Source of the DNA: a virus
Virus record (IMG/VR): IMGVR_UViG_3300025015_000021
Coordinates: 1 to 64,000 of that record
Length of the DNA stretch: 64,000 nt
Reading direction: 5' to 3' (one strand)
Positions 877-39,853 of this stretch are shown here, piece by piece (position 1 is the first letter of the stretch; every line of letters starts with the position of its first letter). The notes beneath the pieces were generated by a model. It saw only the letters and a list, made by a program, of their open reading frames with translations. It searched no databases and had not been told where the DNA came from. The translations under genes and the position numbers were made by a program.

Positions 877-1851
877 TTATCTTGGATCCTCCACGAAGAA
901 ACCTTCCTGTTTAAGTTTTCTTTTATTCCCAAAAGGCTTATCTGGTTCATCTCTAGGTGGGAATATCGGTGAATTAGCTCCATCTGGACTAAATTCAAAT
1001 AATGCATCACAATTTTGGAAAGAAGGTTTAGTATAGGGAACAATTTCTGCTGTAGTATTAGATCTTTTCTTACTAGCCATCCATTCGTGCCATACGAAGG
1101 AACGCATGGTAGCTGAAGCCCGCCCTCCCGCTAAATAAATTCTATGGCAGAGTTGATAATCTTCCGCTCCTGCGGGACCAAACCTTTCATCATATAACCC
1201 CACATTTTCCCAGAAATCTCTCTTGCCCACCACAAACCAGCCCGCAAATCCTTCAATATGTCCTTGGCGGTGGGCAAGTAACATATCGTAGCCTTTCTTG
1301 GTTTGAGCTATTTCCAAAGTAATAGGGCTACCATCTGGAGCTTTAGGGTATATATTATTGCCAATTTGTATTCCCCATGGTGGGCACGAATTTCCAGGTA
1401 TCCAATGACCATCATCAGCTAAACCATAACCAAAACCAGGTTCAATTGGCGAAGCTGGATTAACAGCCTTCATTTCGGGAAAAGCATCGAACTGGTCTAA
1501 GATTCCCTGCCACCAACGATCTGAAATCATCAAAATATCATCATTGCAAGCAGCTACATATTTAGAACCCCAGTACAATCCGTGAATAATTCCTTCATTC
1601 ATACTCTTTGCAAATCCCATGTTTTTCCTTTTAGGATTTCTAATAATCAAGTCGGCATAATCATGTACAAGTCCATAGACTCCATCTTTAGTTTGATCTA
1701 CTACAATTACCCTGAAATTAACAGGAGTATATTTATATAAAGATTCCAAAGCTGGCCTAATAAAATTAGTTAAAACTGGATTAAACACGAATGTTACTTC
1801 TATATTACTATTAGTCAACCTCCTTGCCCTGAGCGTAGTCGAAGGGTTCAT
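877..1851 (-). CDS. glycosyltransferase family 2
   Basis: VIVVDQ, NMGFAKSMNEGI, CNDD, GLYDERFG..AED motifs; start at 1851 gives an ATGA overlap with the upstream ORF. Confidence 0.85.
   Translation of the reverse strand: MNPSTTLRARRLTNSNIEVTFVFNPVLTNFIRPALESLYKYTPVNFRVIVVDQTKDGVYGLVHDYADLIIRNPKRKNMGFAKSMNEGIIHGLYWGSKYVAACNDDILMISDRWWQGILDQFDAFPEMKAVNPASPIEPGFGYGLADDGHWIPGNSCPPWGIQIGNNIYPKAPDGSPITLEIAQTKKGYDMLLAHRQGHIEGFAGWFVVGKRDFWENVGLYDERFGPAGAEDYQLCHRIYLAGGRASATMRSFVWHEWMASKKRSNTTAEIVPYTKPSFQNCDALFEFSPDGANSPIFPPRDEPDKPFGNKRKLKQEGFFVEDPR
1823..1846. repeat. 24-nt hairpin mini-element, family A (inside CDS, encodes PSTTLRAR)
   Basis: CTTG-CCC-TGAGCGTAGTCGAA-GGG. Confidence 0.85.
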
Positions 1852-2138
1852 CTTACCCACCTCCATAAATTATTCCACAATTTTTCCAAAAATGATGTTT
1901 TTGGAAATGGGTACATAGGATATTCAGGAATAAATGATGTCGTAGTTGTACTTCCCCATTTAGATTTTATCCTGCTAACACTTTTAATTGGATTGGTCGT
2001 TCCCAATTTAGATTTAGTCCTTACAGGTTTAATACCTTTATATATTTTAGGTAATTCTTTTTCAAAATCTTTTAATGCTTTAGATTTAATCCTAATAATT
2101 CTTTTCTTATTTTTTATATTTTCTTTTTTATTCTTCAT
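1848..2138 (-). CDS. hypothetical basic protein
   Basis: 96 aa ORF coupled to its neighbours. Confidence 0.5.
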   Translation of the reverse strand: MKNKKENIKNKKRIIRIKSKALKDFEKELPKIYKGIKPVRTKSKLGTTNPIKSVSRIKSKWGSTTTTSFIPEYPMYPFPKTSFLEKLWNNLWRWVR

Positions 2139-2145
2139 ATTACTA

Positions 2146-3288
2146 TCACCACCCCGATTTTATCACAGAGCAAATTTCAGCAACTTGCTCTTCTGTTACA
2201 TAATGATGCATTGGTAATACTAAATATTTATGTTCTAAAGCATCCATATTGGGACAGTTATAAACTCTTCCACCATAAACTTTATATCTATCAGCCCGAT
2301 AATGAACTGGATTTGACTCAATGTTATTTTCCAAAAGTTTTTTCTTCAAAGCCTCTCTGCTTTCAGTTTCAACTGTACAAAGCCAATAACTAGACTCAAT
2401 ATTATCTGGCACATCTTTATTGATTAATCTAATTCCTGGTATTCCTTCCAGTCCCTTTTTATATGCCTCGAATCTTTTCTTTGCCCCTTCAATTAAGTCA
2501 TCAAGCTCATTAAGCCCTTCAATTCCCATTGCGGCCTCAATACTTGTCATTTGATACTTGAAACCTACTTCCCAAATATCCTGCTTCCATCTGTCTTCAA
2601 ACTTAGCTTTTCTGTCAATTCCAAACCATCTAATTCTCTTAGCTTGTTCTTCCTGCATCGGATCTTCTATTGTCAGCATCCCACCATCTCCAGTAGTTAT
2701 GGTTTTCACCGCCTGAAAACTGAAAGCAGTATATTGGCAAATCTCACCAACACGTTTCCCTTTGTAAGTTGCCCCGATTGCCTGAGCCGCATCTTCAATA
2801 ATCGGTACATTCCATTTCTTAGCGATTGGCAAAAGTCTATCATAATTACAAGGCATACCCGCATAATCCACGGCAATAATTGCCTTAATTCTTTCTCCCT
2901 GCTGTTTAAATAGCTCCTCTACATGATTAGGATCAATATTCATTGTATCTTTTTCAATATCAGCAAAAACCATCTTTGCCCCCTGATATAAGATTCCCGA
3001 ATACGAGGCTGAACAGGTAAAAACAGATCCAATAACCTCTTCCCCCTCTTTTATCCCAGCTAGAATATATGCCAGATGAAGTGCCGATGTGCCAGAATTA
3101 ACTGCAATTGCCCGATGTTTACCAGAAATGCGGTTCTCAAATTTTTTCTCAAATTCTTCTACAAGAGGTCCTTCACCTATCCATCTATTATCCATTTGTA
3201 GTCTTGCCCGATTTTTAGCAGATTCAGATAAATAAGGATGAAACAAAACTATTTTATCTTGTCCTGAGCTTGTCGAAGGATTATCCAT
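2146..3288 (-). CDS. DegT/DnrJ/EryC1/StrS family sugar aminotransferase
   Basis: VNSGTSALHLA, IIEDAAQA, FSFQAVKTITTGDGG (PLP lysine). Confidence 0.95.
   Translation of the reverse strand: MDNPSTSSGQDKIVLFHPYLSESAKNRARLQMDNRWIGEGPLVEEFEKKFENRISGKHRAIAVNSGTSALHLAYILAGIKEGEEVIGSVFTCSASYSGILYQGAKMVFADIEKDTMNIDPNHVEELFKQQGERIKAIIAVDYAGMPCNYDRLLPIAKKWNVPIIEDAAQAIGATYKGKRVGEICQYTAFSFQAVKTITTGDGGMLTIEDPMQEEQAKRIRWFGIDRKAKFEDRWKQDIWEVGFKYQMTSIEAAMGIEGLNELDDLIEGAKKRFEAYKKGLEGIPGIRLINKDVPDNIESSYWLCTVETESREALKKKLLENNIESNPVHYRADRYKVYGGRVYNCPNMDALEHKYLVLPMHHYVTEEQVAEICSVIKSGW
3258..3280. repeat. hairpin mini-element, family A (inside CDS, PSTSSGQ)
   Basis: CTTG-TCC-TGAGCTTGTCGAA-GGA. Confidence 0.9.
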
Positions 3289-38373: not shown

Positions 38374-38921
38374 CTCTTAATCCCCCAGAAATAAATATCT
38401 CTTAAATCAGATGGGGGCTGGTAACTTATTTCATATTTCTCAAATATCTCATCAGGCTTAAGAAATTCCTTAAGTTCCCCGATTGTAAACCTTTTATAAA
38501 AATTCGCCCACTCTTCATCACCAAAATTAACAGTTAAGGAATCCTCTGGATTTTTGGTTTTAGTTCCGTGTTCTGGCCTATCATGAGTAGTCTGGAAAAA
38601 CATCAGTCCTCCATGCCTCACAAGATTTATCATCTTTTCAAGGGTTTTTTCCCAATAGATGTCATGCTCAAGCTGATTAGTGGATAGGACTACATCAAAA
38701 GAGCCATCAGGCTCGTTATATCTATGAGCAATCGAAACTACATCTACATCCTTATATTCGGCTATGTCTAAACCAATGTATTGACAATCTTCAAACCAAG
38801 GCTTATTTGATCCATTAATATTCGCAGATCCTACATCAAGTACTTTTACATTATTAAAAAACTGAGGAAATCTTTTCTTCAGTTCTGTTTTCCAACTATC
38901 CTGTTCTAAATCGGCAGCCAT
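38370..38921 (-). CDS. class I SAM methyltransferase
   Basis: VLDVGSANING, FDVVLSTNQLEH. Confidence 0.85.
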   Translation of the reverse strand: MAADLEQDSWKTELKKRFPQFFNNVKVLDVGSANINGSNKPWFEDCQYIGLDIAEYKDVDVVSIAHRYNEPDGSFDVVLSTNQLEHDIYWEKTLEKMINLVRHGGLMFFQTTHDRPEHGTKTKNPEDSLTVNFGDEEWANFYKRFTIGELKEFLKPDEIFEKYEISYQPPSDLRDIYFWGIKR

Positions 38922-38944
38922 AGTTCGATTTCACTCACTACAAG
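38921..38944. repeat. family A mini-element, reverse orientation, fused to a start codon
   Basis: TAG-TTCGATTTCACTCA-CTA-CAAG. Confidence 0.8.
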
Positions 38945-38947
38945 TAA

Positions 38948-39853
38948 TTATTTTTTTGTCAAATCTGCTCCCACAATTTTATCCCCCTTGTATTCAACTA
39001 TTTCATTCCCAAGCTGAAACTGCCCACTTCGAAAAGAAAAGTCATCATTTACATAAAGAGGAAGAGCATTAAGCTTCTCCCATTTCTTCATAAATAGCTC
39101 TGTATTTGCGTTATGAATTTTCCCATCTTCAAATGGACTGCCTGTTCTTTTTTTAAGCCAATCCTGATACTGCTGACTCTCTCCCGTTAATCCTCCTACA
39201 TGATGACAGGGAACATTTACCACAATATTTTTATAACCCCGCCTTAAAGATTCTAAACTCAGGTCACGGTCGTACATGTGATGAAGCTCATATCGCATAT
39301 CAAATCCTCCACCTGCCTTCATCATCTCCATAGAAAGCATCATAGCAAAACTATCAAAAATTGCAGCTGACCTCCAATCCTCTTTCATCCTCATTCCATG
39401 AATTTCAGCTTCAAGCATATTAGACATTCCCGACATCTGACCTGGAAACTCCACATCTTGAACTCTTCCACCGTTCGGTAGACAGCCCTGAGCACCAAAA
39501 AATCCTGCAATGCCAAGTTTCGGGATTTCGTCAAAATATCCCCTTACCCGCACATCCCAATTCTTCTCAAAAATAAAACAGTCGGTATGAAGAAGCATTA
39601 GCAGATCAGTCTGACACTGCTCATAAGCCAGCTTATTGGTTTCCATAAGACCGATATTTTCTTCAAAGCGGATATAGTTTAATTTCTTGGGTTTAATATA
39701 ATCTCTTAGGTATCGTTCAATCGGGTCGGTACTTCCATTATCCACGATTAACCATTCTACCTCCTCAGAAGTTAAATATTTCAAATTTCCGAAGAAGGAC
39801 ATTGCCCATCTAAGGTTATTCATTACAGGCACTAAAATCGTGAGCGTCTTCAT
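38948..39853 (-). CDS. glycosyltransferase family 2
   Basis: TILVPVMN, IVDNGSTD, LHTD, GGFD..YDRD. Confidence 0.88.
   Translation of the reverse strand: MKTLTILVPVMNNLRWAMSFFGNLKYLTSEEVEWLIVDNGSTDPIERYLRDYIKPKKLNYIRFEENIGLMETNKLAYEQCQTDLLMLLHTDCFIFEKNWDVRVRGYFDEIPKLGIAGFFGAQGCLPNGGRVQDVEFPGQMSGMSNMLEAEIHGMRMKEDWRSAAIFDSFAMMLSMEMMKAGGGFDMRYELHHMYDRDLSLESLRRGYKNIVVNVPCHHVGGLTGESQQYQDWLKKRTGSPFEDGKIHNANTELFMKKWEKLNALPLYVNDDFSFRSGQFQLGNEIVEYKGDKIVGADLTKK

Follow-up and report, generated by a model that had tools for sequence, protein, structure and literature searches.

To our knowledge, experimental proof that phage enzymes glycosylate virions is confined to a few mycobacteriophages, in which few transferases take part. 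In Gram-positive bacteria, the serine-rich-repeat adhesins (serine-rich-repeat proteins, SRRPs) are O-glycosylated in the cytoplasm along their long Ser-rich repeats, where a GT4-family enzyme starts the process (GtfA, in the GtfA/GtfB system) and further soluble glycosyltransferases (GTs) extend the glycan. In mycobacteriophage Che8, according to published accounts of the work, phage-encoded GTs O-glycosylate the capsid, and this was established by experiment (Freeman et al. 2023, via PMC12619734, PMC13445384). Among giant viruses, the fibril glycosylation clusters of the Megavirinae hold 6-33 genes (Notaro et al. 2022, PMC10117803; PMC9614988), and these bring together nucleotide-sugar pathways for rare amino sugars of bacterial type, viosamine and bacillosamine, with GTs, and decorate the fibrils of the particle without the host endoplasmic reticulum or Golgi (PMC10117803; PMC9614988). 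Here we consider a locus in an uncultured siphovirus-type phage, known from the 93,901-bp IMG/VR record IMGVR_UViG_3300025015_000021, of which the first 64 kb form the stretch analysed here (the window); the contig is classed as linear with a CheckV completeness of 82%, so that the absences we report apply to its assembled part. Positions 877-39853 are occupied by a single leftward run of genes, rich in GTs and sugar-tailoring enzymes, that surrounds the large terminase (TerL), the portal and a Mu-F-like head gene. We think, with a probability of roughly 0.6, that this run would serve the cytoplasmic O-glycosylation of mucin-like virion proteins, as a much expanded variant of mycobacteriophage virion glycosylation.

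The phage is tailed and has a genome of about 94-115 kb. In the present contig every gene from about 47 kb down to base 1 is on the minus strand, the genes between 47 and 63 kb are on the plus strand and include those for a DnaB/KaiC-like ATPase, a DnaD/HTH protein and an intein-bearing tyrosine integrase, and from 63 to 93.9 kb the minus strand resumes with a siphovirus-type structural module. When the Ser plus Thr (S+T) content of all open reading frames (ORFs) of the contig was measured, four proteins with long Ser/Thr (S/T) tracts were found, all of them outside the window and in the structural module, with more than 1,700 tract residues between them:

genome 89721-92477 (L010:9721-12477), minus strand: 918-aa protein; tract of 822 aa at 92% S+T, whole protein 85% S+T
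genome 86888-89713: 941-aa protein; a 385-aa globular N-domain precedes a tract of 530 aa at 89% S+T
genome 85833-86765: 310-aa protein, just upstream of the prohead protease; a 137-aa N-domain first, then a tract of 171 aa at 91% S+T
genome 69555-73460, minus strand: tail fibre of 1,301 aa (PHROG tail-fibre matches and DUF7483), after the tape-measure and Dit genes; a tract of 211 aa at 89% S+T separates, in frame, the N-domain from the DUF7483 and fibre domains

A degenerate unit close to STSTSSTTTSSSTSTT[QK] is common to all four tracts, which use six of the six Ser codons and four of the four Thr codons, are free of stops in the S/T frame alone, and contain almost no tandem repeat at the DNA level according to Tandem Repeats Finder. 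This codon diversity, together with the sole stop-free frame and the repeat-finder result, means that the S/T composition is selected at the protein level; the S/T ORFs are real, and recent slippage or the collapse of perfect repeats is an unlikely origin for them. The N-domains of the tail fibre and the 941-aa protein are 51% identical and fall into viral-only clusters whose nearest named family is LamG-like (a lead from the ESM Atlas), while the N-domain of the 310-aa protein has four database homologues at 68-84% identity, all four of which continue into S/T tails. The N-domains of the S/T proteins have no Pfam family, and that of the 310-aa protein gave a poor AlphaFold2 (AF2) model (pLDDT 59, all-beta) with no BFVD match at E<=0.001. 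The 918-aa protein shares the initial MARIW of the tail fibre and its paralogue but has lost the globular N-domain of these two, and may be a deletion derivative or the product of recombination between repeat tracts.

The enzyme that links such tracts to the glycan genes is GTB-434, which is better conserved than any other protein of the region: its homologues in relatives are 73-80% identical, those of portal and TerL 55-68%. By a profile-guided scan, 190 IMG/VR stretches were seen to encode a relative of GTB-434, and 82 loci were fetched and analysed. GTB-434, the two GT2 genes of the core cassette and two further neighbours are as follows:

19315-20052, minus strand: GT2g, a GT2 glycosyltransferase of the core cassette (PF00535, 1e-10; homologues in 53 of the 82 loci)
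20360-22486, minus strand: GT2h, a GT2 glycosyltransferase of the core cassette (Pfam GT2, Intein_splicing and LAGLIDADG_3; homologues in 58 of the 82 loci)
23326-24162, minus strand: DH278, a truncated NDP-sugar 6-dehydrogenase homologue of 278 aa (homologues in 55 of the 82 loci)
24163-25467, minus strand: GTB-434, a GT-B glycosyltransferase of GT4 fold (PF00534)
25524-25898, minus strand: 124-aa protein just upstream of GTB-434, kept in close relatives only

The AF2 model of GTB-434 (pLDDT 90.8) shows a GT-B fold of the GT4 type, with MshA, BshA and sucrose-phosphate synthase as its nearest neighbours; the top 50 fold matches are these enzymes, glycogen synthase and the like, with no specific similarity to GtfA. 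We regard GTB-434 as a candidate initiating protein O-glycosyltransferase. More than 1,500 homologues are present in a collection of 5.8 billion proteins. One homologue, 87% identical, lies on a contig binned as Ca. Curtissbacteria, and the metagenome-assembled genome (MAG) labels of more distant ones span so many phyla that no consistent host emerges. Two further homologues, L093 and L095, on megabase gammaproteobacterial MAG contigs, measure 686-688 aa and have an apparent fusion or N-terminal extension. A tblastn search of 50,697 GenBank phage records returned no homologue of GTB-434 or GT2g, and for GT2h, with an intein-less homologue as query, only partial generic GT2 matches, one of them in a Mycobacterium phage.

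GT2h itself is interrupted at its DxD motif by a 449-aa LAGLIDADG intein (about 20852-22198; junction FVFLD/S...HN/SDD) with the signatures PF14890 and PF14528, and an alignment shows the insert to be missing from four homologues. Inteins are usually found in replication or packaging proteins, and the presence of one in so unusual a host protein suggests that this GT is indispensable to the phage. DH278, which the first-pass annotation had called Ugd, is indeed a dehydrogenase homologue that keeps the N-terminal NAD-binding and central domains and the catalytic Cys in a CLPKD motif, but it is not the full-length form, the C-terminal nucleotide-sugar-binding domain being gone. The short dehydrogenase of its relatives is 262-273 aa long, so that the short form is native and not a product of the neighbouring HNH gene; its substrate may be a sugar already attached to protein. 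An iterative hidden Markov model search ties the 124-aa protein to close relatives only, and not to the ORFs of about 105 aa that are similarly placed in distant loci.

With an S/T-tract ORF defined as at least 80% S+T over 40 aa, such an ORF is present in 61 of the 82 loci at a median distance of 832 nt from the GT gene, mostly 20-1,400 nt upstream of it and in the same orientation, and TerL or portal homologues of the present phage occur in just 11-13 of the 82. The loci are related by descent, so per-locus counts overstate their independence and a cluster-level count is fairer: clustering GTB-434 at 60% identity gave 31 clusters, 28 of them with enough upstream sequence, and 13 of these 28 keep a same-strand S/T-tract ORF no more than 2.5 kb upstream. 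By BLAST, the non-tract parts of the carriers sort into seven groups, of which at least five are unrelated to one another, the two largest having a domain of about 45 aa (in one to three tandem paralogues) and one of about 220 aa. In L089, a contig with a GC content of 53% binned with a Lysinibacter MAG, the order runs TerL, portal, two intervening genes, major head protein, an S/T-tailed 288-aa protein, a 104-aa ORF, GT4, GT2h, a short-chain dehydrogenase/reductase (SDR) and GT2g, so that the S/T carrier occupies the usual place of head-decoration genes, right after the major head protein. The pairing is also found in MAG contigs of 34-64% GC assigned to Acidobacteriota, Gemmatimonadota, Chloroflexota and archaea; these contigs are probably viral and swept in by the binning. 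Our literature searches on S/T-tract phage proteins and GT arrays found no description of this pairing.

The remaining glycan-related genes of the run were identified through Pfam scans, at curated cut-offs, of every minus-strand ORF of at least 80 aa in 877-39853:

877-1866, minus strand: GT2a, a GT2 glycosyltransferase (PF00535, 27.8 bits; homologues in 22 related loci)
2146-3288, minus strand: DegT/PseC/LegC-like sugar 4-aminotransferase (PF01041, 1e-89; nearest NCBIfam models PseC and LegC, below equivalog)
3281-4120, minus strand: GT-A-like ORF, sub-threshold (Glyco_tranf_2_5, 18.3 bits against a cut-off of 27)
4113-4718, minus strand: GNAT N-acetyltransferase, PseH-like in NCBIfam (PF13302, 1e-18)
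4715-5545, minus strand: SDR sugar epimerase/dehydratase, GalE/TviC-like (PF01370, 5e-36)
5820-6497, minus strand: GT2-like ORF, sub-threshold (PF00535, 21.1 bits against a cut-off of 23.3; 62% identical homologue in the relative G001)
9311-9991, minus strand: GT2-like ORF, sub-threshold (PF00535, 21.3 bits)
9988-10584, minus strand: SAM methyltransferase (PF08241, 1e-10)
10586-11749, minus strand: methyltransferase of NDP-sugar C-methyltransferase type, with Zn, methyltransferase and C-terminal domains (PF08484, PF08421, PF13489)
11691-12626, minus strand: GT2 glycosyltransferase (PF00535, 7e-12)
12608-13462, minus strand: SDR, 4,6-dehydratase or UXS-like (PF01370, 8e-42; LegB, RmlB and UXS/ArnA-like in NCBIfam)
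13459-14064, minus strand: PIG-L family de-N-acetylase, BshB-like (PF02585, 4e-13; best NCBIfam BshB1/BshB2)
14061-14588, minus strand: class I SAM O-methyltransferase, TylF-like (Methyltransf_24)
14890-15453, minus strand: SAM methyltransferase (Methyltransf_24)
15450-16487, minus strand: GT-B glycosyltransferase (PF13524, 2e-17; homologues in 25 related loci)
17381-18337, minus strand: ATP-grasp ligase of Ter-operon/PylC-like type (PF15632, 3e-29)
18334-19209, minus strand: GT2 glycosyltransferase (PF00535, 26.2 bits; homologues in 25 related loci)
30653-32194, minus strand: GTB-513, GT-B-like (PF13692, 25.5 bits, cut-off 27; relatives also have it upstream of TerL, at 53-68% identity)
33737-34558, minus strand: GT2 glycosyltransferase (PF00535, 28.5 bits)
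35312-36187, minus strand: RGP/GT75, UDP-arabinopyranose-mutase-like (PF03214, 8e-33; PDB 8cid, UDP-arabinopyranose mutase, 8e-17)
36934-37608, minus strand: GT2 glycosyltransferase (PF00535, 1e-17)
37873-38373, minus strand: SAM methyltransferase (PF08241)
38370-38921, minus strand: SAM methyltransferase (PF13489)
38948-39853, minus strand: GT2 glycosyltransferase, first gene of the block (PF00535 and PF13712; 75% identical homologue in L007)

The inventory of GTs and tailoring enzymes in the first-pass annotation was thus borne out by the Pfam scans, with four of its GT calls (three GT-A, one GT-B) sub-threshold. There are 15 GT-like genes, 11 of them above Pfam cut-offs, which divide into eight GT2 above the cut-off, three GT-A-like below it, one RGP/GT75 and three GT-B, one just below; interleaved with them are seven sugar-tailoring enzymes and six non-DNA methyltransferases, making 28 glycan-related genes that take up about 24.7 kb (26% of the contig). 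The three weak GT-A ORFs (3281-4120, 5820-6497 and 9311-9991) had no sequence match in the PDB, and no sugar enzyme reaches an NCBIfam equivalog cut-off, so the identities of the sugars discussed below are read from family resemblance. In a non-overlapping ORF set, 31 of the 48 junctions in the run overlap or are no more than 10 nt apart, and this tight packing of 28 glycan genes on one strand with TerL, portal and head gene would suit genes that are expressed late, together with those for structural proteins. Promoter scans of 39.7-47.6 kb gave nothing above chance. At the other end, the terminator said to precede virion-like genes is there as a hairpin after the last GT gene; the ORF that follows has no detectable family, and recognisable virion genes are at the contig's far end:

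818-789, minus strand: terminator-like hairpin, 11-bp stem and T-run
85-600, beyond the terminator: ORF with no detectable family in Pfam

The C-methyltransferase, the TylF-like O-methyltransferase and the DegT enzyme are typical of natural-product deoxysugar pathways, and low-complexity linkers are common in fibres, which between them make room for the idea that the tracts are unglycosylated spacers while the GT block makes some other soluble glycoconjugate, for example a small-molecule glycoside. We hold this to be highly improbable, since there are no aglycone-forming genes, the codon diversity shows that the tracts are maintained at the protein level, and, unless the two are functionally linked, it is difficult to see why unrelated carriers should keep such tracts beside the GT cassette; it is a possible reading, but less economical than virion O-glycosylation.

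The genes that the GT block surrounds, and the other genes in the run that are not concerned with glycans (among them a DNA methylase, an exonuclease, a 2H phosphoesterase and two HNH genes, besides the intein), are these:

16445-17023, minus strand: HNH homing-endonuclease-like gene (PF13392)
22458-23114, minus strand: HNH endonuclease-like gene (PF13391)
25891-26715, minus strand: Mu-F/SPP1 gp7-like minor head protein of 274 aa, a lead (no Pfam; ESM Atlas features 0.92, TM-score 0.72 to Phage_Mu_F clusters)
26645-28432, minus strand: portal protein (PF04860, 4e-25)
28434-30179, minus strand: large terminase, gpA type (PF05876 and PF20454)
30070-30750, minus strand: candidate small terminase (TerS), by position alone, with no family match
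33169-33789, minus strand: 2H phosphoesterase-like, sub-threshold, not glycan-related (PF13563, 26.6 bits against a cut-off of 27; weak Acb1 match)
34621-35409, minus strand: N6/N4 DNA methyltransferase (PF01555, 4e-47)
36356-36937, minus strand: RNase T/DEDD exonuclease (PF00929)

The four packaging and head genes that the first-pass annotation placed within the run are therefore of unequal standing: TerL and portal are firm Pfam assignments, TerS is named for its position and the head gene for ESM Atlas features and structure. The ORF at 32226-33080, a 412-aa protein, a 397-aa protein and the TerS candidate have no Pfam family.

A metagenomic contig without a terminal repeat might always be an assembly chimera, here of a phage and a host polysaccharide locus, and a synteny search had been proposed as a check. 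A portal search of IMG/VR found eight contigs at 49-64% identity, and in those long enough the order GT-B, (TerS), TerL, portal, one intervening gene, the 124-aa gene, GTB-434, short dehydrogenase, GT2h, GT2g is kept; at least six independent IMG/VR contigs, taken from different samples, show the order GT-B, TerL, portal, GTB-434, DH278, GT2. The 82-kb relative G001 has proteins 35-75% identical to those of this phage and is collinear with it over the GT block, the packaging genes and the tail module, and GC and skew are uniform across the junctions. With the same arrangement in independent contigs and along the whole of G001, and with such even composition, we consider a chimera scarcely credible. 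G001 is informative in another respect, for directly downstream of its GT2a homologue lies a gene for a globular domain that runs on into the S/T repeat of the four tracts until the contig end cuts it off, while its tail fibre also bears an S/T tract and its opposite end stops at the adaptor gene; this arrangement supports a circular order that runs from the GT block through the S/T proteins to protease and capsid and then the tail. In one related contig (L008:3014-7066), the portal ORF is 1,350 aa long against the usual 590 or so, and an intein or a fusion is possible.

The run had been described as free of export functions, and this has stood up well: hydropathy gave at most one hydrophobic segment for any ORF in 877-39853, and a six-frame search of the 93.9-kb contig, positive on control genomes, found no Bac_transf priming transferase (PF02397), WecA/MraY (PF00953) or Wzx flippase (PF01943). 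As for GtrA and GtrC, there is no multi-transmembrane ORF in the run, the specific families not having been searched. These results bear on the idea that soluble GTs act at the cytoplasmic face on lipid-linked or teichoic-acid-type intermediates of the host, which the host then exports, as an auxiliary function or a lysogenic conversion that might, for example, block superinfection. Wall teichoic acid is after all modified by soluble GT2 and GT4 enzymes without a transporter of their own (TarM, TarS and the prophage-borne TarP), the tyrosine integrase means that the phage may be temperate, many of the enzymes resemble those of O-antigen, capsule or deoxysugar pathways, and homologues of GTB-434 also occur on long chromosomal MAG contigs. 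We nevertheless think such envelope remodelling unlikely, given that the 28 genes are coupled within a packaging and head operon and do not form a moron with its own promoter, that priming transferase and flippase are missing from the contig and multi-transmembrane GtrA/GtrC-like proteins from the run, that the core GT is tied to S/T-tract ORFs of virion modules in many contigs, and that in none of 12 GTB-434 loci from GTDB genomes was the wider block seen to be syntenic with a chromosomal polysaccharide locus.

The first-pass annotation had named virion proteins or phage DNA as the cytoplasmic acceptor, and the first of these is supported by the S/T tracts and their linkage to the GT4 enzyme. 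DNA hypermodification, in which the GTs would build oligosaccharides on modified bases of the genome and so evade restriction, has in its favour that phage GT clusters for 5-hydroxymethylcytosine (5hmC) and 5-hydroxycytosine (5hoC) exist, may adjoin structural genes and use GT4-like enzymes (10.1101/2023.12.21.572611; PMC13326640). Genes compatible with a UDP-pentose or arabinose route are present in the run, as is a weak match to DUF1599, 'nucleotide modification associated', at 14585-14887. However, the six-frame search of the same contig, again with positive control genomes, found no ThyA (PF00303), TET/JBP (PF12851) or C5-methylase (PF00145), and among the scanned ORFs there is no dNMP kinase, dCTPase or DNA polymerase. 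The sole DNA methylase is of the N6/N4 type, the GT genes lie in a late structural operon, the arabinose route of RB69 and DLP3 uses other enzymes (an isomerase, a kinase/pyrophosphorylase and a HAD phosphatase), and the link to S/T tracts would be left unexplained. DNA is accordingly disfavoured as the acceptor, and we rate this alternative as very unlikely, with some small weight left to it by the roughly 18% of the genome that lies outside the assembly and by a GT4 fold that does not discriminate.

Several points weigh against virion O-glycosylation too, and they deserve to be set out together. All of the support for it is genomic, and the S/T tracts could be plain flexible linkers. No S/T ORF lies nearby in 21 of the 82 loci, or in 15 of the 28 GTB-434 clusters; in the present phage 50-60 kb of the linear contig separate GTB-434 from the S/T genes, whose adjacency to the GT block depends on the circular or wrapped order that we infer from G001. 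The long homologues L093 and L095 have neither an S/T-tract neighbour nor other genes of the block, and may be cellular relatives of the phage enzyme. GTB-434 and GT2g are without detectable relation to the phage enzymes of the 50,697 GenBank records, and hence to those of the Che8 type. The GT4 fold is also non-discriminating, the DNA arabinosyltransferases of RB69 and DLP3 likewise resembling BshA, MshA and sucrose-phosphate synthase (PMC13326640).

How, then, might the system work? The gene content, the lack of membrane and export genes, the S/T tracts and the conserved linkage of GT4 to such tracts lead us to propose a cytoplasmic virion acceptor, and they support, as far as genes can, a complex glycan, methylated and acylated, on the scale of the giant viruses; that the tracts are glycosylated, by these enzymes and with these sugars, is what we infer from them. 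The late operon would encode a self-contained, membrane-free pathway fed by host UDP-sugars, which must supply it because the gene set has no nucleotidyltransferase. The acceptors would be the tail fibre, its 941-aa paralogue, the 918-aa near-pure S/T protein and the 310-aa protein. GTB-434 would add the first alpha-linked hexose or N-acetylhexosamine to Ser or Thr in the cytoplasm, a role in keeping with its retaining GT4 fold and with nearest structural neighbours that use UDP-GlcNAc or UDP-Glc, and the co-conserved GT2h and GT2g would lengthen the chain, leaving the lineage-specific enzymes to diversify the glycan. Among these, the 4,6-dehydratase-type SDR, the PseC/LegC-like transaminase and the PseH-like GNAT could yield a 4-acetamido-4,6-dideoxyhexose, and the dehydrogenase homologue, the UXS/ArnA-like SDR, the 4-epimerase and the RGP protein a uronate or pentose, possibly arabinofuranose, although the missing UDP-sugar domain of the dehydrogenase weakens this last route. 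PIG-L, followed by the ATP-grasp enzyme or a GNAT, may turn GlcNAc into GlcN and then into an N-acyl derivative (de-N-acetylation and re-acylation), by analogy with the pairs of GT4 and PIG-L enzymes that occur in mycothiol, bacillithiol and GPI synthesis, and one C-methyltransferase and five other methyltransferases would methylate the glycan. More broadly, it seems to us an even bet that tailed phages of many hosts share a mobile cassette of poly-S/T virion proteins, a GT4 and two GT2 enzymes with which they build a mucin-like coat or glycosylated fibres, expanded here to 28 genes and those >1,700 tract residues, with DH278 maybe oxidising protein-attached sugars.

The rest of the genome adds context. 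The other members of the structural module are as follows:

genome 84985-85830, minus strand: prohead protease
genome 81815-82834, minus strand: SU10-type major capsid protein
genome 74802-77180, minus strand: tape measure
minus strand, elsewhere in the module: head-tail adaptor, tail-tube-like protein, Dit and several HNH genes

The best GenBank phage matches of TerL are Herelleviridae, at just 27% identity, and the contig has no terminal repeat at k>=20 and no tRNAs. The tyrosine integrase (window 55762-57921, plus strand; Phage_integrase with a SAM-like N-domain) is split by an intein with LAGLIDADG domains, the second intein of the genome and again in an unusual host protein, and it hints that the lifestyle may be temperate. 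The 2H phosphoesterase-like gene, with its weak match to the anti-CBASS Acb1, may be an anti-defence gene, as may the N6/N4 methylase and the exonuclease. Free-standing HNH/NUMOD homing-endonuclease-like genes are unusually numerous, several of them between GT or structural genes (window 16445-17023, 22458-23114 and 44881-45549; genome 68225-69064, 73462-73854 and 80822-81706). A dispersed element of about 24 nt (CTTGTCCTGAGCTTGTCGAAGGAT and variants) recurs at gene junctions or close to them, at window positions 3258, 16061, 24130, 25912 and 42408, and also at 9234 and 43015; no mobilising gene was identified for it.

Were the O-glycosylation of virion proteins to prove correct, self-glycosylation would be widespread in uncultured phages, the core enzyme being encoded on about 190 IMG/VR contigs and having more than 1,500 homologues, and the complexity of phage glycans could reach the level of giant-virus fibrils. 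It would also give us a new view of phage surfaces in adsorption, aggregation, resistance to proteases or grazing, and interactions with immune systems or mucus, and it would furnish protein O-glycosyltransferases that are soluble, work without a membrane and have a plain poly-S/T stretch as their acceptor tag, a set of possible use in glycoengineering.

How does all this compare with what has been described? The locus had been put forward as an undescribed system, which in our view holds for the enzyme set and its scale, while the principle, O-glycosylation of virions by phage-encoded enzymes, is known from the mycobacteriophages. Cell-surface polysaccharide loci of the Wzx/Wzy or ABC kind have a priming transferase, of which the contig showed none, and multi-transmembrane proteins, of which the run showed none. 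The phage DNA glycosylation clusters (T-even; MT/TET 5hmC; RB69/DLP3 arabinosyl-5hoC) are alike in their GT4- and GT2-like enzymes and, at times, their own sugar-nucleotide synthesis, but they need a base-hydroxylating or hydroxymethylating enzyme, not found here, employ one to three GTs and have no S/T-tract partners. The chemistry proposed here resembles the glycosylation that GtfA initiates on the SRRPs, but that system is cellular and coupled to SecA2/SecY2 export, for which there are no genes here, nor was a GtfB-like partner seen, none having been specifically looked for. The Megavirinae clusters are comparable in gene number and in pathway types (DegT, a 4,6-dehydratase-type SDR, an N-acetyltransferase); they belong, however, to eukaryote-infecting giants with genomes above 1 Mb, whereas here about 26% of a 94-kb tailed phage is given over to such genes, and the likeness drawn here is one of gene number and pathway types. 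Closest in principle is the Che8 type (also Corndog and Myrna), in which, according to the same accounts, soluble phage GTs modify the phage's own structural proteins in the cytoplasm; there it is the C-terminal parts of capsid and tail-tube subunits that bear the glycans and the GTs are few, as against candidate acceptors with poly-S/T tracts of 171-822 residues on fibre-like proteins and 15 GT-like genes with 13 for predicted tailoring enzymes here. What would set this system apart from Che8, the Megavirinae and the SRRPs is the combination of core enzymes not detectably related to those of any GenBank phage record, a pathway free of any export step and near-pure S/T acceptors of hundreds of residues, all in a tailed phage of about 94-115 kb.

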